Shown one piece after another: positions 9,249-45,744 of a stretch of DNA of 60,685 nt. Both the position numbers and the translations under genes were made by a program. Source of the stretch: Candidatus Omnitrophota bacterium (GTDB lineage: Bacteria > Omnitrophota > Gorgyraeia > Gygaellales > Profunditerraquicolaceae); contig JBAZGD010000004.1 of NCBI GenBank assembly GCA_041653055.1, positions 1 to 60,685 on the forward strand. Reading direction: 5' to 3'. The first letter of the stretch is position 1. Each line of letters starts with the position of its first letter. The notes under the pieces were generated by a model. The model saw only the letters and a list, made by a program, of their open reading frames with translations, searched no databases and had not been told where the DNA came from.

Positions 9249-10031
9249 ATGAATATAATAGTTTGCATAAAACAGGTTCCCGAAACAACCGAGGTAAGGA
9301 TTAATCCGGAAACAAATACGCTTATGCGCGAAGGGGTAAAGTCTATCATTAATCCCTTTGATATGTATGCCATTGAAGAAGGGGTAAGGTTAAAGGAGCG
9401 TTTCGGCGGGAAGGTAAGTGTTGTCACCATGGGCCCTCCGCAGGCAGATGCTGCTTTGCGCGAGGCTATCTCCATGGGGGCTGATGAAGGGTTTTTGGTT
9501 TGTGACCGCGCCTTTGCCGGTTCAGATACATGGGCTACGAGTTATACCTTGGCCGGGGCAATCAAAAAGGTAGGAGCGTTCGATATTATTATCTGCGGCA
9601 AGCAGGCCTCTGACGGAGACACGGCACAGGTGGGCCCGGGGATCTCGACGCATTTGAATATACCCCAGGTAACTTATGTAAAGAAGGTTGAAGAGGCTAC
9701 TGATAAAATGATGCGGCTTGAGCGTATGCTTGAAGAAGGATATGAGGTCATTGAGACTTCCTTGCCGGTGCTCTTAACCGTGGTTAAAGAGATTAACGAG
9801 CCCAGGATCCCTTCTTTGAAGGGATTAATGCGGGCAAAATCTGCCAAGATTACAATACTCACCCAAAAGGAGCTCGATTTAGACCCGCAGCAGATTGGGC
9901 TATGCGGATCTCCGACGCAAGTGGTAAAGATTTTTACCCCTCCCCAGAGGCAGGGCGGGCAGGTGCTTAAAGGAGAGATCCCCGATATTGCCGCTGAGTT
10001 AGTGGGGCTATTACGAAGCGAGGTAAATTAA
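9249..10031 (+). CDS. etfB: Electron transfer flavoprotein beta subunit
   Basis: CIKQVP, NPFD, DRAFAGSDTWATS, GKQASDGDTAQVGP, EINEPR motifs. Confidence 0.96.
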   Translation: MNIIVCIKQVPETTEVRINPETNTLMREGVKSIINPFDMYAIEEGVRLKERFGGKVSVVTMGPPQADAALREAISMGADEGFLVCDRAFAGSDTWATSYTLAGAIKKVGAFDIIICGKQASDGDTAQVGPGISTHLNIPQVTYVKKVEEATDKMMRLERMLEEGYEVIETSLPVLLTVVKEINEPRIPSLKGLMRAKSAKITILTQKELDLDPQQIGLCGSPTQVVKIFTPPQRQGGQVLKGEIPDIAAELVGLLRSEVN

Positions 10032-10033
10032 TC

Positions 10034-11233
10034 ATGTCGATACAGATTATTATAGAAAAATGCACCGGTTGTGCGCTTTGCGTTAAGGCCTGCCCTTTTG
10101 ACGCTATCCGCATCATGGACAAAAAGGCGGTTATTGATTTACATAAATGTACTCTTTGCGGCGCCTGTAAAGACGCCTGTAAGTTCAAGGCGGTTTTGCT
10201 TGAGAAGTCCCCGGCTAAATGCGATTTGCCGGATATAAAAGATTATAAAGGCATCTGGGTTTTCTTGGAGCAGAAAAACGGTAAGGTGCAGTCTGTATCC
10301 TATGAGTTATTGGGGAAAGCCCGGGAACTGGCTAAGAAATTAAACTGCCAGGTAAGCGGCGTCTTGATAGGCAATAAGATGGAGGATCAGCTTGATGAGC
10401 TTATCTTCTGCGGAGCGGATAATATTTACCTGGTAGAGGCGCCAGAGCTGGCTAATTTTCAGGATGAGCCTTATACGAATGTTTTAGTGGAGCTGGTCAG
10501 GAAATATAAGCCGGAGATATTTTTATGCGGGGCTACTAATATAGGAAGGTCGCTTATATCCCGCGTGGCAATTAACATCAAGGCAGGTTTAACTGCCGAT
10601 TGCACGGGTTTAGATATCGATTGCGATAAAAAGATACTGCTTCAGACCAGGCCTGCCTTCGGCGGAAACATTATGGCTACGATTATATCGCCTAATTACC
10701 GTCCGCAAATGGCAACGGTGCGGCATAAGGTATTTGCCCCGATGGCCCCTGACAAGAAACGCAAGGGAAAGATTATAAGAGAAAGTTTTGAGAGCGCCTT
10801 GTATGTTTCGCGCACCAAGCTTCTGGATATAGTTGAAGAGATTGAATCTTTGGTAAATTTAGCTGAGGCGGATATAATTGTCTCCGGAGGCCGCGGTATG
10901 GGTGGGCCGGAGAATTTCAAGATGTTAGAGGAACTTGCCCATGTTTTAGGCGCGGCAGTGGGTTCTTCGCGCGCTGCGGTTGATGCAGGATGGATGCCTT
11001 ATTCCCATCAGGTAGGCCAGACCGGACGGACTGTTGCCCCGAAGATTTATTTTGCCTGCGGCATATCCGGGCAGATTCAGCATCTTGTGGGAATGCAGTC
11101 GTCAAAAATAATTGTCGCCATCAATAAAGACCCCGAGGCTCCTATATTTAAGGTAGCTACCTACGGAATAGTCGGGGATCTCTTTCAGATAGTTCCAGCC
11201 CTCACCGGTAAATTCAAAGAATCCCTCAAATAA
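10034..11233 (+). CDS. etfA: Electron transfer flavoprotein alpha subunit with N-terminal 2x[4Fe-4S] ferredoxin domain
   Basis: CTGCALCVKACP and CTLCGACKDAC; RPAFGGN, QVGQTG, ISGQIQH, INKD. Confidence 0.96.
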   Translation: MSIQIIIEKCTGCALCVKACPFDAIRIMDKKAVIDLHKCTLCGACKDACKFKAVLLEKSPAKCDLPDIKDYKGIWVFLEQKNGKVQSVSYELLGKARELAKKLNCQVSGVLIGNKMEDQLDELIFCGADNIYLVEAPELANFQDEPYTNVLVELVRKYKPEIFLCGATNIGRSLISRVAINIKAGLTADCTGLDIDCDKKILLQTRPAFGGNIMATIISPNYRPQMATVRHKVFAPMAPDKKRKGKIIRESFESALYVSRTKLLDIVEEIESLVNLAEADIIVSGGRGMGGPENFKMLEELAHVLGAAVGSSRAAVDAGWMPYSHQVGQTGRTVAPKIYFACGISGQIQHLVGMQSSKIIVAINKDPEAPIFKVATYGIVGDLFQIVPALTGKFKESLK

Positions 11234-11307
11234 TTAAATAGGGACAGCGCCCATAATTAAATAGGGACAGCGCCCATTTTTTCAAAAATGGGCGCTGTCC
11301 CTATTTA
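11231..11307. repeat. Family B: 23-bp tandem duplication followed by an inverted arm (doublet)
   Basis: TAATTAAATAGGGACAGCGCCCA at 11231-11253 and 11254-11276. 11258-11281 is the exact reverse complement of 11284-11307. Confidence 0.93.
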
Positions 11308-11383
11308 TCCAAGAAGGATTGCATCTTTTATCGCTAGAATAGGCTGTTTAGCATTAGAATGTCAAAGAATGTAAAGATTTTCC

Positions 11384-11412
11384 TTGACAAAATTCGGTTT
11401 ATATCTTATATT
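11384..11412 (+). promoter_or_regulatory. Sigma70-type promoter for the HTH-smc operon
   Basis: TTGACA-N17-TATATT. Confidence 0.72.
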
Positions 11413-11452
11413 ATTACCAGTTGATAGTTGTTTTTATTGAAAAGTGTTCGGA

Positions 11453-11477
11453 GAGTGTCCCTTTGGGGAGCGTCCCC
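11453..11477. repeat. Family C solo arm in the predicted 5' UTR of the HTH gene
   Basis: GAGTGTCCCTTTGGGGAGCGTCCCC is the exact reverse complement of 700-724. Confidence 0.9.
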
Positions 11478-11486
11478 CAGGAATTT

Positions 11487-11669
11487 ATGATGATGAATAG
11501 CGGGTTGATGACAATTGAGGATTTAGCGGATTATTTAAAGGTTACCCGCCGCACAATTTATGATTGGGTTAAGCGTAATAAAATCCCGGCGGTTAAGCTT
11601 GTGGGGCAATGGCGTTTTAAAAAAGATAAAATTGATGCCTGGTTAGAGGGGCAATCGCAACCTCATTAA
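11487..11669 (+). CDS. Small excisionase-like/BldC-like helix-turn-helix DNA-binding protein (HTH_17); start at one of ATG 11487/11490/11493
   Basis: MTIEDLADYLKVTRRTIYDWV...IPAVKLVGQWRFKKDKIDAWL. The longer ORF from 11421 would run through the promoter-proximal repeat. Confidence 0.88.
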   Translation: MMMNSGLMTIEDLADYLKVTRRTIYDWVKRNKIPAVKLVGQWRFKKDKIDAWLEGQSQPH

Positions 11670-11680
11670 GGGGGGAGAAT

Positions 11681-14600
11681 ATGTATTTTAAAAGATTAGA
11701 GCTGTCAGGATTTAAGTCGTTTTCCGAGAAGACCACGCTTCATTTTGAGCCCGGAATTACCGCTGTTGTAGGCCCTAACGGCTGCGGGAAATCAAATATA
11801 TTTGATAGTATCCGCTGGGTATTAGGCGAGCAGTCGGCAAAATCCCTGCGCGGGTCAGAGATGCTGGATGTTATTTTTAACGGAACGGACAAACACGACC
11901 CCTTAGGGATGGCTGAGGTTACCCTTGCCTTTGATAATAAGGCCCGTTTTTTTAACTTTGATAACGACGAAGTGGCTATTACGCGCAGGCTCTTCCGTTC
12001 GGGTGAAAGCGAGTATCTCCTGAACAAGAACCAGGTGAGGCTAAAGGATATACTCGACCTTTTGCTTGGCACCGGGATTGGCGCGGAGAGTTATTCTATA
12101 ATTGCCCAGGGCAAGATTGATTTAGTCTTAAGCTCCCGCCCTGAAGAAAGAAGAATGGTTTTTGACGAAGCCTCGGGGATTACAAAATATAAGGCCCAGA
12201 AAAGAGAGGCACTACGCAAACTTGAAGATACCGACCAGAATCTCCTGCGGGTCAATGATATCGTCACCGAGGTAAAGAGGCAAATCGGAAGCTTGGAGAG
12301 GCAGGCGAACAAGGCGCGCAGGTATAAGGAGGGTTTTGAAGAGCTTAAATCTAAAGAAGTATCCTATTGCGCCTTGGAGAAGAATACGCTGTTGGGAGAA
12401 AAAGAAGTTGTGATTAATAATTTAAAAGAACTGCAGGCAGCGCAAGAGGCCTTGCTTGTTACCATAAGTGAATTAGAGCTTAAGATAGCCTCGCGTAATT
12501 TCCAGCTGAAGCTCCTTGAAGAGAATATGCTTAATGCCAAAAATGAGCTGATGGGCCTTGAGAATGAAGTGGTGAGAAATAACGAGCGTATGAATTTTAA
12601 CCGCGAGAAGATCCAGGAGTTGAATGCCGCCAGGGAATACCTGAATGAGCAGGTAATCCATCTGGAGGCTAAGTTAAGGATCGAGGAGGATAAGCTTAAA
12701 AGCGTCAAAAGCGAGTATGACGGATTAAAGGGTTTAATTGAAGATAAGTCCAGGGATTTGGCTGAAAAGGATATCAAGATCTCAAGCCTTGCTTCAGGCA
12801 TTAAGCGTTCGCTTGAAAACATTTCAGGCTTCAAGAAAGAGATTGTGGACCTTGCCGGCAGGATAGCCCAGAGCAGGAATCAAATCTCGGAATTTAATTC
12901 CCAGGAGCAGGTTTTCCTGGCCCGTAAAAAGAGGCTTGAGATTGAGAAGGCAAAGATTTACGAGGAGAAGTCAATAACCGAGGAGAACCTTGCTAAGGTC
13001 ACCGGGGAGGTTAACGCGGCGCGCAATTCGGTCAATGAATGTATCCAGAGGATAGCCTCAGGCAAGTTAAGCCTTGAAGATGAGAACCGTTCCTTAAGCT
13101 CTATTAATACCGAGATTGAAGGATTGGAAAAACAGAAACTTGCCCTTGAGTCCCACAAGGCCTTTTTGGAAGAGCTTAAGGCAAAGTACCTGGATAAGGC
13201 CGAGACCGTAAATGCCCTGGTTTATCTGGATAAGCTTCCGGCGGATAAAACTAACGGGCTGGTCATACAGGTAAACAGCGCGGTTAATTTAGATGACGAA
13301 GATAAGGCTTATTTTGGGCCGGCAAATTTCAAGTTAACCGGAGAGGCAAAGCCCATAGAGCTGGATACCCATAATATTGAAGTGAAGATAGGGCGCATAG
13401 AGGAGGGTATGGGGACATTAAGAATCTCTAAGCAGGTTAAAGAGGCGCATATAGATGAAATAAACAAGGGGATTGTATCCTTGGGGGAGGAGTTGCGTTC
13501 TTTTGAGATTAACCTCGCTAATAAAGAGACCTCGCGCCAAACGGTATTGGAGCAGTTTAATAAGATCAGGGAGGAAGAGGATCTGATAGTTTTAGACCTA
13601 ACTGAGGTGCAGAAGGAATTGGGCGTGCTTGAGGGGAATATAAAAACTGCTCAGGCGCAGCTTGCGGATCTGAGCAATAGCCAGCGCATGAGCGAAGATT
13701 CCATATTGAGAGAGGAAGAGAATATTTCTTTAAATAGCAAGCTTAGGGAGGACCTTTTGGTGGTTATTACTCAGGTAAGGACCGAACTGGAGTCTTTGCA
13801 TAAACGTATAGTCTCTGATGAGGCTACCTTAAGGCTTTTAGAGGAGACTTTCTCGCATGACAAGGATAATTTTGATAATATCCAGAGGCAGATTCAGGAA
13901 TCCCTGAATAAAACAGGGTCAATGGAGTCAGAGATAAAGGAGTGCAAAGAAAGGCTGGCTGATTTTGAGAAGAGCATAGAAGAAAAGCGTGAGGCGCTAA
14001 AAGTAGCGGAGGCGCGTTATCAGGAGTTTTCTTCGGGGGCTGAGGATGTGGTTTTAAAGGTAGAAAAAGACAGGAAAGAGCTCGATAATTTGAAGAAGAG
14101 GCTGCATGAGCTTCAGATGCAGGATAAGGAGATAGAATATAAATACAATACCCTGAAAGAGAGGATGCTGCAGGCTTATAAAATTGACCTTGATGCGGTT
14201 GAGGTGCCTTCCGAAGAGATAGGCCGGCAGGCGCTTTTCGCAGAGATAGAGGCCTTAAAGGGCAAGCTGGATTCTTACGGGACGGTTAACCTGGTTGCGA
14301 TTGAGGAATATGACGAATTAAAGAAACGCTATGATTTCCTTATCCAGCAGCAGGCTGACCTTAGCCAGGCTAAGGACGCCTTGCACCAGGCGATATTAAA
14401 GATTAACCGCACCACAAAACAGATGTTTATGGAGACCTTTGAGAAGGTGCGGGTAGAGTTTCGTAATTACTTCCGCCTGCTTTTTAACGGAGGCGACGCG
14501 CAAGTTTATCTGGTGGATGAGAGCGATCCGCTAGAGTCGGGTATTGAAATTATCTGCCGTCCTCCGGGAAAGAAGCTGCAGAATGTGTTGCTTTTATCCG

Positions 14601-14911
14601 GCGGAGAGAAGTCCATGTCTGCGATTGCTTTGATCTTTGCCATTTTTAAGGTAAAGCCTTCGCCGTTCTGCATACTTGATGAGATTGACGCGGCCTTGGA
14701 TGAGGCTAATGTGGACAGGTTCGCCCGCGCGCTTACGGAGTTCTCGCAGAACTCCCAGTTTATAGTAATTACCCATAACAAGAAAACCATTATTAATGCC
14801 GATGTGATGTACGGGATTACTATGGAGCAATCGGGTATATCGAAGATAGTCTCGGTAAAATTCGCTAAGGAAAAGGATAAAGAACTGGAGGCGGTCTCCG
14901 GGGCTGTTTAG
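11681..14911 (+). CDS. smc: Chromosome segregation protein SMC with non-canonical short hinge
   Basis: Walker A GPNGCGKSN, signature LLSGGEKS, Walker B/D-loop CILDEIDAALD, ITH switch, long coiled coils. 1076 aa. Confidence 0.95.
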   Translation: MYFKRLELSGFKSFSEKTTLHFEPGITAVVGPNGCGKSNIFDSIRWVLGEQSAKSLRGSEMLDVIFNGTDKHDPLGMAEVTLAFDNKARFFNFDNDEVAITRRLFRSGESEYLLNKNQVRLKDILDLLLGTGIGAESYSIIAQGKIDLVLSSRPEERRMVFDEASGITKYKAQKREALRKLEDTDQNLLRVNDIVTEVKRQIGSLERQANKARRYKEGFEELKSKEVSYCALEKNTLLGEKEVVINNLKELQAAQEALLVTISELELKIASRNFQLKLLEENMLNAKNELMGLENEVVRNNERMNFNREKIQELNAAREYLNEQVIHLEAKLRIEEDKLKSVKSEYDGLKGLIEDKSRDLAEKDIKISSLASGIKRSLENISGFKKEIVDLAGRIAQSRNQISEFNSQEQVFLARKKRLEIEKAKIYEEKSITEENLAKVTGEVNAARNSVNECIQRIASGKLSLEDENRSLSSINTEIEGLEKQKLALESHKAFLEELKAKYLDKAETVNALVYLDKLPADKTNGLVIQVNSAVNLDDEDKAYFGPANFKLTGEAKPIELDTHNIEVKIGRIEEGMGTLRISKQVKEAHIDEINKGIVSLGEELRSFEINLANKETSRQTVLEQFNKIREEEDLIVLDLTEVQKELGVLEGNIKTAQAQLADLSNSQRMSEDSILREEENISLNSKLREDLLVVITQVRTELESLHKRIVSDEATLRLLEETFSHDKDNFDNIQRQIQESLNKTGSMESEIKECKERLADFEKSIEEKREALKVAEARYQEFSSGAEDVVLKVEKDRKELDNLKKRLHELQMQDKEIEYKYNTLKERMLQAYKIDLDAVEVPSEEIGRQALFAEIEALKGKLDSYGTVNLVAIEEYDELKKRYDFLIQQQADLSQAKDALHQAILKINRTTKQMFMETFEKVRVEFRNYFRLLFNGGDAQVYLVDESDPLESGIEIICRPPGKKLQNVLLLSGGEKSMSAIALIFAIFKVKPSPFCILDEIDAALDEANVDRFARALTEFSQNSQFIVITHNKKTIINADVMYGITMEQSGISKIVSVKFAKEKDKELEAVSGAV

Positions 14912-16080
14912 CAGCAGGTTTTATTGCGGCCTTTATTCTTGGCCTGATAAAGGAATTTGTCAGAGGCGGCAATGAGTTCTGCGGGGAGCAGGCCGTCTTC
15001 AGGGAAAGAGGCTATCCCCAAGCTTACGGTTAGTTTTTTATCGGGTAGAAGGTCTTCGTTGATAAAGGGGTATTTCTCGGTGTCCATTCTCAGGCGCTCA
15101 GCGATCATGAGCGCTTCTTTTTTGTCGGTTTGGGGGAGGATTATTGCGAATTCCTCTCCGCCATAACGGCAGACAAAGTCCATTTTACGGGACTGATTCT
15201 TAAGCAAGGTCGCCAGTTCTTTCAAAATTTTATCTCCGGCCTGATGCCCGGCAGCGTCGTTGTATACCTTGAAAGAATCTATATCAAGCATGATCAGGCT
15301 TAGCGGTTTTTGCCTTCCGCGTGATTTTTCAAGTTCAGTGTTGAGGAGAAACTGGAAATAGCCGTGGTTCCATAATTCCGTTAAGCTGTCCAGATGCGCG
15401 AGCATAACGGTTTTTTCGTAGAGCTGCGAGTTTTCAATTGCCAATCCTGCCTGGTTGGCGAGCATGGTGAGCATATGGATGTTATCTTTAGTAATCGGCT
15501 CGCGGTTGATAAAATTGTCAGCTACGATTATGCCGTTAATCTTATTCTTTGCCTTTAAGGGTATCAATACCAGCTCGTCACTCTTTAAAAGCTGGACTAT
15601 AGGGCTAGTTTTGTAATTTGGGATAGTCTCTTTGGTTAGATGCAGCGGCATTCCTTCCTGGGCTACCAGAGAGAGGAGGCTTTCGTTGGCATCGTGTGTT
15701 GAAAATCTTAAACGCTGTATCTGTTTGTTGAAGCCGGAATCGAAACCCTGTTCAGCCCGGTTTGTGTTTTTGTAGGCGTTTATCAGGTCGTCTAAATCCA
15801 TTTTCTCGCCTTCTATCAGCCCCCAGATGCGGTTTGCTTCCTCTCCCGTTTCAGGGCCTATGCCCATCTTGCCTTCAATTAATCCGTCTTTTTCGTTGAT
15901 CAAAAATAGAAGGGCGCGGTTAAACCCAAGGCCTATGTGCGCGGTTACTCCGGTAAGGATAATATATAGAATTTCATCCAGTTTTAAGGTGGTACGCATG
16001 GCATTGGAGATTTCATAGAGTATTTCCAGCTCCAATTTTGTGCGTTCGAGCTCGTTTTTAAGCTTAAGGAGTTCTTCCAT
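14908..16080 (-). CDS. GAF-domain diguanylate cyclase
   Basis: N-terminal coiled coil, GAF-like region (GLGFNRALLFL...GPETGEEANRIW), DIDSFKVYND, I-site RKMD and GGEEF. Confidence 0.93.
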   Translation of the reverse strand: MEELLKLKNELERTKLELEILYEISNAMRTTLKLDEILYIILTGVTAHIGLGFNRALLFLINEKDGLIEGKMGIGPETGEEANRIWGLIEGEKMDLDDLINAYKNTNRAEQGFDSGFNKQIQRLRFSTHDANESLLSLVAQEGMPLHLTKETIPNYKTSPIVQLLKSDELVLIPLKAKNKINGIIVADNFINREPITKDNIHMLTMLANQAGLAIENSQLYEKTVMLAHLDSLTELWNHGYFQFLLNTELEKSRGRQKPLSLIMLDIDSFKVYNDAAGHQAGDKILKELATLLKNQSRKMDFVCRYGGEEFAIILPQTDKKEALMIAERLRMDTEKYPFINEDLLPDKKLTVSLGIASFPEDGLLPAELIAASDKFLYQAKNKGRNKTCC

Positions 16081-16089
16081 AATGAGTTA

Positions 16090-16118
16090 AATCTACCATA
16101 CTTTTGAGGCCCTGTCAA
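16090..16118 (-). promoter_or_regulatory. Sigma70-type promoter for the GAF-GGDEF gene
   Basis: On the - strand: TTGACA (16118-16113), N17, TAGATT (16095-16090) with an extended TG; only 9 bp to the ATG. Confidence 0.62.
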
Positions 16119-16130
16119 GCAAGCGAGGTA

Positions 16131-16147
16131 TAAGGGGGACGGTTCTT
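16131..16147. repeat. Degenerate family A arm
   Basis: TAAGGGGGACGGTTCTT versus TAAAGGGGACGGTCCTA. Confidence 0.5.
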
Positions 16148-16267
16148 CGGGTTCTTACCCGCTTACCCGCAATATTTTATAAAAACCTCAAATTATCATT
16201 AAATTTAGGTTAGATTTAGGGCAGGGCTGCGTCTATTGTTTTAGAGGGGAAGGGGGTGAGTATTTAT

Positions 16268-16296
16268 TTGACACTCGTATTTAGGTAAGTTATAAT
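16268..16296 (+). promoter_or_regulatory. Consensus sigma70 promoter for recA
   Basis: TTGACA-N17-TATAAT; SD GGAGG before ATG 16330. Confidence 0.85.
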
Positions 16297-16329
16297 ATCT
16301 AATCTAAAACTAAAAAAGCGGAGGTTATA

Positions 16330-17355
16330 ATGGTTACCAGGGATAAAAAAGAAGAGTTGCAGCAGAATATTTCCGACCGGAGCAAGGCGCTGGAATTGGC
16401 CTTAGCCCAGATCGAAAAGCAGTTTGGAAAAGGTTCAATTATGAAGCTGGGTTCGCATGTTAAGGCTAACGTTGAGACTATACCTACGGGTGCCCTTACC
16501 CTGGATCTGGCTTTAGGGGTAGGCGGGCTTCCCCGCGGGAGAGTGGTGGAGATCTTCGGGCCTGAGGCAAGCGGAAAGACTACTTTAACCTTAACTGCCA
16601 TCAGGGAGATACAGAAAAAAGGCGGGGTTGCCGCTTTTATCGACGCAGAGCACGCCTTTGATTCTACCTATGCAAAGCTTATCGGAGTAAATTTAGACGA
16701 TCTTTTAATCTCCCAGCCTGATACTGGCGAACAGGCGCTTGAGATTGCCGAGACATTGGTGCGTTCCAATGCCGTGGACTTGGTGGTTGTGGACTCGGTG
16801 GCAGCCTTAACCCCCCGCGCGGAGATTGAAGGCGATATGGGAGATTCCCATATGGGCCTGCAGGCGCGCTTAATGAGCCAGGCTTTAAGAAAATTAACCG
16901 CCGCAATAAGCAAATCGCGCACCACATTAATTTTCATTAACCAGTTAAGAGAGAAGATCGGGGTTATGTTCGGCTCTCCCGAGACTACTCCCGGGGGACG
17001 GGCGCTTAAATTCTATTCCTCGGTAAGGCTGGATGTGCGCAGGATTGCTACCATAAAAGAAGCAGACAGGGTAATGGGCGGCCATGTTAGGGTAAGGGTG
17101 GTTAAGAATAAGGTTGCTCCGCCTTTTCGCGAGGCAGAATTTGATATCCTGCATAATGAAGGCATCAATAAGGTGGGTACAATTTTGGATGCCGGGGTTA
17201 CCCTTGAGGTAATCGCTAAATCCGGGACGTGGCTTTCCTTTAACGGCGAGAAGATCGGCCAGGGCAGGGATACCGCAATGAAGGCGCTTAAGGAAAACCA
17301 GAAGCTTTCAGATACAATTGAGAAAGAAATAAGGAAGAAGATCAGCGTTGCCTAA
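16330..17355 (+). CDS. recA: Recombinase RecA
   Basis: [42 protein letters not shown]. Confidence 0.99.
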
Positions 17356-44513: not shown

Positions 44514-45139
44514 TTTCAGGTATTTCAGGAAGGGTGGTTGAGAAGGGGGATAATTATTTAATACTGGAGGTAGGCGGTATATCCTATCAGGTATTCATAC
44601 CTACGGCGGTTATGGAGCGCATAGGCGAATCGGTGGATGCAGACGGAAAGATCAGCCTGAAGATTTTTCACTACCTGCAGTCTGAGCCGAATAAAAGTAT
44701 TCCGGTTTTAGTAGGATTCTTAAATGATATTGAGAGGGATTTCTTTGAGGTTTTTATTACCGTCTCAGGCATAGGCCCGCGCGCTGCCTTGAGGGCTTTA
44801 AATAAGCCGATATCTGAGATTGCCCGGGCAATAGACGAGGCGGATTTGGCCTATTTAAAATCGCTTCCGGGTATAGGCCAGCAAAGGGCCCGTGAAATTA
44901 TTGCTAAGCTTCAGAATAAGATCGGGAAGTTCGGATTGATTCAGGATTGCCGCCGGCAAAAAGAAGATTTTACCAAATCCAGGGGTATATCGGATGAGGC
45001 CTTAGCCGTCCTGGCGCAGTTAGAATATAAAAAACATGAGGCATTGAATATGATTAGAAGGGCGATAGAGTCATCCCCCAAGGTTTCGACAACCGAAGAA
45101 TTATTAAACCTGGTATATAAACAGAAGAAGGCAAAATAA
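44510..45139 (+). CDS. ruvA: Holliday junction DNA-binding protein RuvA
   Basis: LEVGGISY, HhH motifs VSGIGPRAAL and LPGIGQQRA-x-x-II, C-terminal domain III. Confidence 0.95.
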   Translation: MISGISGRVVEKGDNYLILEVGGISYQVFIPTAVMERIGESVDADGKISLKIFHYLQSEPNKSIPVLVGFLNDIERDFFEVFITVSGIGPRAALRALNKPISEIARAIDEADLAYLKSLPGIGQQRAREIIAKLQNKIGKFGLIQDCRRQKEDFTKSRGISDEALAVLAQLEYKKHEALNMIRRAIESSPKVSTTEELLNLVYKQKKAK

Positions 45140-45744
45140 TGGGAGATAACCGTAAATCTGTAATTGAGGCTCTGCTTCTCGCAAGCGAAAGACCCCTGGG
45201 CCTGGAAAAGATAAGGGATGTGCTGGATAATTTGCCGGCTAAAGATACTTTAGGGTTGATTGAAGAACTGAAGAAAGAATATGATGATGGCAGCCGCGGC
45301 ATAAGGGTTGTAGAGATTGCGGGAGGCTTTCAGATGATAACGGCTCCGGAGTTTGCGCCTTTCCTAAAGAAACTCTTTAAGGGCCGTAATACCGAGAGAT
45401 TATCCAAGCCTGCCCTTGAAACCTTAGCCATTATTGCCTACAAACAACCTTTAACCAGGGGTGAGATAGAGTTATTGAGAAATGTTAATGTAGACGGGGT
45501 AATGAAGAGTTTATTGGATAAAAGCCTGATTCGTATTACCGGCAGGAAGAAGGCTGCGGGTAATCCCTATGTTTACGGCACGACCCGGCAGTTTTTAGAG
45601 CATTTTGGGCTGAAGTCGCTTCAGGACCTGCCTAAAATCGAGGATTTTTCATCTTTAGCAGAGAAGACAGAGCTGATTGAAGAATTCCCGGAAGTAGAAA
45701 AACAAGCGGAGGGGGAGAATGGACCTGAAAACATTACGCAATAA
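45139..45744 (+). CDS. scpB: SMC-Scp complex subunit ScpB
   Basis: IEALLLAS, IAGGFQ, LS-x-PALETLAIIAYKQP-x-TRGEIE-x-x-R-x-V, YGTT-x-x-FLEHFGL-x-SL-x-DLP. Confidence 0.96.
   Translation: MGDNRKSVIEALLLASERPLGLEKIRDVLDNLPAKDTLGLIEELKKEYDDGSRGIRVVEIAGGFQMITAPEFAPFLKKLFKGRNTERLSKPALETLAIIAYKQPLTRGEIELLRNVNVDGVMKSLLDKSLIRITGRKKAAGNPYVYGTTRQFLEHFGLKSLQDLPKIEDFSSLAEKTELIEEFPEVEKQAEGENGPENITQ

Follow-up and report, generated by a model that had tools for sequence, protein, structure and literature searches.

SMC proteins are characterised by a hinge, to which constitutive dimerisation, DNA binding and the role of a DNA entry gate have been attributed. What takes its place, then, in an Smc that has none? 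The question is raised by the smc gene of the DNA stretch analysed here, which comprises 60,685 nucleotides from a Candidatus Omnitrophota bacterium (contig JBAZGD010000004.1 of assembly GCA_041653055.1) and is referred to as a whole as the window. A preliminary description of the locus, made from the sequence alone, had noticed that only about 60 residues separate the two arms of the encoded protein and had proposed a possibly undescribed dimerisation architecture. We report that in this protein, and in those of many related Omnitrophota, a small conserved module stands at the hinge site; on the basis of structure models and conservation, we estimate a probability of roughly 0.65 that it is a lineage-specific replacement device by which Smc-ScpAB dimerises at the apex.

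An Smc with complete heads and arms and no hinge

The 1076-residue product of the gene scored 858.9 bits with TIGR02168 (SMC_prok_B, bacterial Smc), for which the curated cut-off is 567.35, and in Pfam it was matched by a split SMC_N head (E 8.4e-73) together with AAA_23, AAA_21 and further P-loop families. The gene and the motifs of its ABC head, read from the sequence and supported by the matches named, are the following:

11681..14911, + strand: smc, a single uninterrupted open reading frame of 1076 amino acids
11771..11794, + strand: Walker A/P-loop GPNGCGKS (residues 31-38; SMC_N and AAA_23 matches)
14594..14701, + strand: C-terminal head, with the signature LSGGEKS (972-978) and Walker B FCILDEIDAALD (996-1007; AAA_21 and SMC_N matches)

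All three head motifs are thus intact, as had been claimed. The models of related families scored far below their cut-offs, those of Rad50/SbcC reaching 42-65 bits versus 700-1087 and that of RecN (TIGR00634) 48.6 bits versus 407.85, and no MukB- or MksB-related family occurred among the Pfam matches at E ≤ 10 or among the best 25 of 42 NCBIfam matches at E ≤ 1. The assembly is a fragmented metagenome-assembled genome (MAG) of 0.96 Mb in 41 contigs, 86.6% complete; a TIGR02168 search of the whole of it found no second smc, and the other, weak matches to this profile were rejected as SMCs, being unrelated coiled coils.

TIGR02168 matched the protein in two co-linear pieces, residues 2-517 corresponding to profile positions 1-517 and the translation of 13370-14860 to positions 689-1180. 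Therefore, about 170 profile positions, those of the hinge (517-689), are replaced by about 46-60 residues, and both arms have the canonical length, the N-terminal one ending and the C-terminal one restarting around the 60-residue stretch that had first drawn attention; this stretch is the exact translation of 13187-13366 (residues 503-562). The expectation that a search for the hinge family would be empty was borne out: PF06470 (SMC_hinge) gave no match at E ≤ 10 with either the whole Smc or the isolated apex, and none anywhere in the assembly. Moreover, reading of the apex revealed neither a glycine-rich hinge motif nor a CxxC hook, in agreement with the first description; the 60 residues contain no cysteine at all, which excludes a hook of the Rad50 type.

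Distribution of the module

A search with the apex region retrieved 88 proteins, all of them from MAGs of Omnitrophota/Omnitrophica, so that the taxonomic range of the 60-mer, which it had been suggested to map, lies within this phylum. These homologues are 1071-1125 amino acids long, or about 1630 when they carry an intein, and PF06470 was found in none of them. Among the genomes related to that of the window at the level of genus, family and order, the SMC aligned end to end in 40 out of 41, in frames of 1068-1110 amino acids and with 43-96% identity; the earlier concern that close relatives might all have a full hinge can therefore be set aside. In a sample of the phylum, a canonical hinge was present in 109 of 151 genomes, whose SMCs are of about 1200 amino acids; the hinge-negative genomes listed in this sample all belong to the class of the window, and 22 further negatives lie outside that list. 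A scan of the class itself found the hinge-less pattern of two stretches in about one third of 111 genomes, distributed over the families f1, f21, f22, f25, f27, f29, f30, f31, f32, f34, f56, f60, f62, f66, f69 and f71.

To compare the apices, 19 hinge-less and 20 canonical smc genes of the class were retrieved. Despite only 13-25% identity to the window's protein in the apex region, the hinge-less apices follow one common plan: the N-terminal arm ends in KYxD(I/M)P, which is followed by 5-6 hydrophobic residues and a loop; then come G-h-h-x-K-h, an insert that varies between 0 and 30 residues, and h-x-h-x-(C/G)-E-x-K-x-I-x-L-D, after which the C-terminal arm begins. A profile of this apex (82 positions, 24 diverse sequences), run against 1.84 billion representative proteins at E ≤ 1e-3, matched 58 clusters. 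In all real matches the module is located around residue 500, either of a protein of SMC length or of a fragment or intein-bearing form. On these searches, the module is specific to the SMC apices of the window's Omnitrophota lineage. Two giant lysine-rich repeat proteins (P0089 and P0108) were also considered as carriers and judged spurious, their scores being sums of 16-24 weak repeats; P0108 was read. In the NCBI annotation the relatives are named only 'AAA family ATPase', and since pipelines label these Smc proteins in no other way, the feature is of practical value for genome annotation.

Two further peculiarities of the smc genes of this group were observed. An intein right after the P-loop (GPNGCGK|C...HN|SN) interrupts the hinge-less smc of other species of the genus and of other families (G010:C107:5475-10379 and G002:C171:1457-6358, loci L009 and L012; P0003, P0007, P0014, P0067, P0094, P0134 and P0144). 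It is mostly of about 550 amino acids, with an endonuclease of the LAGLIDADG type (PF14528 and PF14890), and of about 250 in P0134; the smc of the window has no intein. In family f58, SMCs in frames of 1299 amino acids (G198:C26:11676-15506 and G217:C160:570-4400) showed a break of TIGR02168 at profile positions 632-644, which points to a probable insertion of about 100 amino acids inside the hinge.

Conservation and predicted structure

Conservation was counted in 67 sequences filtered to less than about 60% identity, and the apex was modelled as a monomer by AlphaFold2, whose confidence is given as the predicted local distance difference test (pLDDT). The elements of the apex are listed below, with the evidence for each:

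13076..13192, + strand: last part of the N-terminal arm (coiled coil, residues 466-504), with the near-invariant Y503 (66/67); AlphaFold2 helix, pLDDT 84-98
13193..13366, + strand: mini-domain at the hinge site (residues 505-562); no Pfam match, profile gap 517-689, one clade, SMC apices only
13211..13231, + strand: NALVYLD (511-517), hydrophobic and extended, which could be a first strand and might pair in trans; 512-516 hydrophobic in 64-100%, pLDDT about 69-80
13256..13288, + strand: predicted hairpin strand GLVIQVNSAVN (526-536); AlphaFold2 strand, G526 55/67, K530 52/67
13289..13327, + strand: variable insert with a short predicted helix DEDKAYF (539-545), deleted in some relatives; alignments and AlphaFold2 helix
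13328..13357, + strand: predicted hairpin strand FKLTGEAKPI (550-559), with the most conserved polar residues, E555 (59/67) and K557 (65/67); AlphaFold2
13367..13507, + strand: start of the C-terminal coiled-coil arm (563-609); AlphaFold2 helix, pLDDT 96-99, TIGR02168 resuming at profile position 689

Further conserved positions are I559 and L561 (54/67 each), D562 (52/67) and P520 (51/67). Position 530 is a lysine in most relatives and a glutamine in the genus of the window. On both hairpin strands, hydrophobic and charged residues alternate throughout the alignment. The conservation of Y503, K557, E555 and G526 indicates selection on the module.

When the diverse alignment of 67 sequences was used in a second run, the mean pLDDT was 89.7 (69-86 in the apex) and the predicted template modelling score 0.71. 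In this model a helix (466-504) is followed by an extended segment (505-525), a strand (526-536), a short helix (539-545), a second strand (550-559) and a final helix (563-609), so that the apex is predicted to be a long two-stranded β-hairpin with a short helix atop the coiled coil. Over the two runs, the ends of the arms were modelled as helices with pLDDT 93-99. Of the three strand-like runs that had been pointed out in the sequence, GLVIQV and FKLTGEA correspond to the two strands of the modelled hairpin, whereas NALVYL is extended but takes no regular structure in the monomer.

Evolutionary history, locus and partner genes

In a maximum-likelihood tree from which the apex was left out, so that it was calculated on the columns of heads and arms alone, all 22 mini-domain SMCs formed one clade (SH-aLRT 99), nested among the canonical-hinge SMCs of the class. 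The genomic position is also shared. The arrangement etfB-etfA-smc-GGDEF/GAF, with the last gene convergent, was found in 14 of 17 hinge-less loci and around many canonical-hinge genes of the class, and the longer order (c1)-etfB-etfA(ferredoxin-fused)-smc-GGDEF/GAF(convergent)-recA is kept across many of its families, with or without hinge (9249-17355 in the window; L075-L104). The protein of the window is the bacterium's ordinary housekeeping Smc, and both its descent and its position in the genome make it an orthologue of canonical bacterial Smc. These data are explained most simply if the hinge was replaced once, in situ, in this orthologous gene, which was then inherited vertically over a long time.

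A second, independent loss of the hinge in the class was met in f19, where SMCs of two genera (G075:C10:34978-37860, L049, 981 amino acids; G103:C13:11009-13477, L050, a frame of 849 amino acids) have neither hinge nor mini-domain but a short loop (GMSSDPHHAG or SSSPLH) between symmetrically shortened arms. They group on the tree with the canonical-hinge SMCs of f19 and have the locus in common with them.

Of the partner subunits, the scpB gene of the window, reported earlier at 45139, was recovered with a clear Pfam match:

45139..45744, + strand: scpB, partner subunit of Smc-ScpAB (PF04079, E 1.2e-53)

ParB is present in the genome. ScpA is missing from the assembly; of 31 relatives, 29 have it, and those of the window's genus, ten in number, all do. 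An Smc-ScpAB complex, as previously put forward, is plausible. The search for other SMCs, also suggested at that stage, left a single SMC and no MukB-like protein.

A model for the function of the module

We propose that the hinge of about 170 residues was replaced in an ancestral bacterium from which a large set of families in a single class of Omnitrophota descends, and that the Smc bearing the module would still work with ScpA, ScpB and ParB. The module would consist of an extended hydrophobic segment and then a two-stranded hairpin with a variable helical insert, placed on an unchanged antiparallel coiled-coil tip. Since such a hairpin has one fully hydrophobic face and is accompanied by an unpaired hydrophobic segment, it should be unstable alone and suited to pairing with its twin. 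Two hairpins with their extended segments could pair via these hydrophobic faces and form a small shared β-sheet or barrel, as prefoldin subunits join, and by this pairing the ring of Smc-ScpAB would be closed. On the opposite face lie the conserved K530, K532, K551, E555 and K557, through which contact with DNA may be retained. We suggest, more tentatively and at slightly worse than even odds, that the module represents a fold for SMC dimerisation that had not been described before, namely a prefoldin-style hairpin 'clasp' with no central channel or two-lobed gate. If the clasp were true, a whole free-living or host-associated lineage would run its condensin without the canonical functions of the hinge (DNA/ssDNA gate, obstacle bypass). 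Moreover, since barrels made of hairpins may comprise more than two chains, SMC assemblies of higher order might in that case be formed through the module.

Several observations weigh against a new apex dimeriser of this kind. With a shallow alignment of closely related sequences, AlphaFold2 left the apex poorly folded (pLDDT 54-61), and residues 505-525 have no regular secondary structure even in the better model. A Foldseek search of the PDB with the model gave no significant match, the best being a prefoldin (E 0.16, template modelling score 0.33), and a PDB sequence search with the apex returned coiled-coil noise only. As position 530 is a glutamine in the window's genus, the proposed basic face would be weaker here. 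ScpA was not found in the window's assembly, at its completeness of 86.6%. Finally, when the apex alone was aligned by hhalign to the hinge of the class, the probability was 1.8% (E 0.027); a relic of the hinge is thus possible, though not supported statistically.

Alternative explanations

This last comparison bears on whether the mini-domain is new at all. It might be a shrunken remnant of the hinge, produced by an internal deletion that kept its first 45 residues or so, and its function could still be dimerisation; we regard such an origin as doubtful. The change did take place in situ, within one gene, and, on its best hhalign path, the apex runs co-linearly along the canonical hinge of the class over roughly its first 47 residues (GVKAIL...GIxGvLAxLIxV...YExAvEaaLG). 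Inclusion of the arm end even raised the alignment to the canonical hinge region of the class to a probability of 94.6% (E 7e-8), with a posterior confidence that was still moderate over GLVIQV. However, this score is so high because of the homologous arm end, as the apex alone gave the value reported above, and 0.3% with a smaller set. In addition, the C-terminal strand is predicted as β, and the hinge stretch to which it aligns (YExAIEaALG) is a helix; other weak alignments, to the C-terminal end of the hinge and to GRATFLPL, score about equally. On these alignments, the apex was not accepted as homologous to the canonical hinge. A separate question is whether the apex dimerises. The SMCs could be joined at the heads, by ScpA and ATP engagement, or by rod-like contacts of the arms, the mini-domain being then a tip that binds DNA or a partner. 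The polar face of the monomer model, rich in conserved lysine and glutamate, would suit such a tip, and the f19 SMCs, which with their shortened arms have neither apex domain, suggest that an apex dimeriser may be dispensable in the phylum. On the other hand, the strictly conserved hydrophobic alternation on both strands and on the segment 512-516 resembles a buried interface, and no conserved partner gene adjoins smc, none being universal among the loci compared. Moreover, apex joining is established for the well-studied members of the SMC family (SMC, MukB and Rad50), to our knowledge for all of them, and we therefore consider a non-dimerising tip unlikely.

Two other explanations concern the identity of the gene. 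The canonical Smc might have been displaced by an SMC-like protein that serves some other purpose, such as defence, and that arose as a paralogue or came by horizontal transfer, as could be imagined from the bare annotation as ATPase and from one genome (G118) that holds a hinge-less SMC together with a hinge-bearing fragment. Against this stand the single copy, the retention of ScpAB, a locus that is that of canonical smc genes and a clade nested in the class's own Smc tree. As to the fragment (G118:C23:1-2804, L051), it lies on a contig of 2.8 kb in an otherwise clean MAG and its N-terminus is divergent and not Omnitrophota-like (LNGYKTFA versus GFKSF), for which reasons it is probably a contamination from binning; displacement is thus very improbable. 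Even less credit can be given to an artefact of assembly or gene calling, or to a gene decaying in a reduced genome, although the MAG is fragmented and incomplete. The frame is uninterrupted, none of the head motifs is damaged, conservation of the apex residues is strong, and the same architecture recurs at 43-96% identity. In fact, the short apex is common to about 88 independently assembled homologues and to 40 related genomes, which excludes an assembly gap, as the clean in-frame junctions had already led to argue; an artefact or a pseudogene was rejected because the short apex is conserved clade-wide.

Comparison with known systems

The Omnitrophota protein resembles canonical Smc (of the B. 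subtilis or T. maritima type, as in TIGR02168) in its full head motifs, its arms of about 340 residues and its partners ScpB, ParB and, judging from the relatives, ScpA, as well as in being a single housekeeping copy, at the locus used by sister lineages and nested in the canonical gene tree. It differs in that the two-lobed hinge of about 170 residues (PF06470, PDB 1GXL) with its glycine motif is absent, and a predicted hairpin module of 45-60 residues, with no detectable similarity to it, stands instead. MukB, of E. coli MukBEF, has an apex dimeriser smaller than the canonical hinge, and in this respect the two would be alike; unlike MukB, however, the window's protein is a true Smc orthologue that would go with ScpAB and not with MukEF, and no MukB or MukB-hinge family of Pfam or NCBIfam matches it. 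Prefoldin is an oligomer assembled via β-hairpins at the tips of coiled coils. Its subunits were the top Foldseek matches (PDB 2ZDI, 1FXK and 6NR8; E 0.16-1.4 and template modelling scores of about 0.3, which are not significant), and the likeness is one of topology only, two long antiparallel helices tipped by one or more β-hairpins; there is no sequence similarity, and function and oligomeric state differ.

Exchange of the hinge has a precedent in the laboratory. In B. subtilis Smc(Zh), reported in 2017, the hinge was swapped for the zinc hook of P. furiosus Rad50 and the protein was functional (PMC5344682), which shows that Smc tolerates the exchange of its hinge for another dimeriser; another report describes the Rad50 hook as interchangeable with the SMC hinge (PMC6969161). 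As in Smc(Zh), the heads and arms are kept in Omnitrophota and only the hinge has given way to an apex module of far smaller size, but here the exchange is natural, ancient and clade-wide, and the module of the window's protein, having no CxxC and no cysteine, cannot be a zinc hook. A natural cluster of 'hinge-less' SMCs has been described from ocean metagenomes and placed near Actinomycetes (Environ Microbiome 2025, PMC12153180). Like the proteins studied here, these come from environmental bacteria and have SMC-type heads and arms with neither hinge nor CxxC; ours belong to Omnitrophota and carry a defined, conserved β-hairpin mini-domain, a distinction that is drawn from the published description of that cluster. 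Hence, the initial idea of an undescribed architecture holds for the conserved, lineage-specific module in place of a hinge but not in its full breadth, as natural hinge-less SMCs and the zinc-hook chimera were already published. The idea of a hinge-less or hinge-exchanged SMC is not new, and the conserved hairpin module of Omnitrophota is a new form of it; in the literature searched we found no publication linking Omnitrophota with the SMC hinge.

A large natural lineage thus has a housekeeping Smc with normal heads and arms, together with ScpAB and ParB, and with the hinge swapped for a module one third its size. This makes the Omnitrophota Smc a compact construct, already tested by evolution, for asking which functions of the hinge are essential, among them perhaps the selective bypass of obstacles, to which the hinge has recently been linked in one report (PMC12647877). 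For protein engineering, too, the module offers a new candidate dimeriser of small size.

Other observations near smc

In some hinge-less genomes small open reading frames lie between etfA and smc. They fall into three unrelated clusters, none of them universal (L076, L083 and L087, 85-89 amino acids; L078 and L079, 97-103; L080 and L084, 117-121); the corresponding spacer of the window (11234-11680, 448 bp) contains no frame of at least 100 amino acids. An unusual extension was also observed in a 1010-amino-acid frame (G000:C5:11392-12003, L004), where an N-terminal hydrophobic segment and about 300 amino acids of coiled coil are fused to an EF-G-like translational GTPase.

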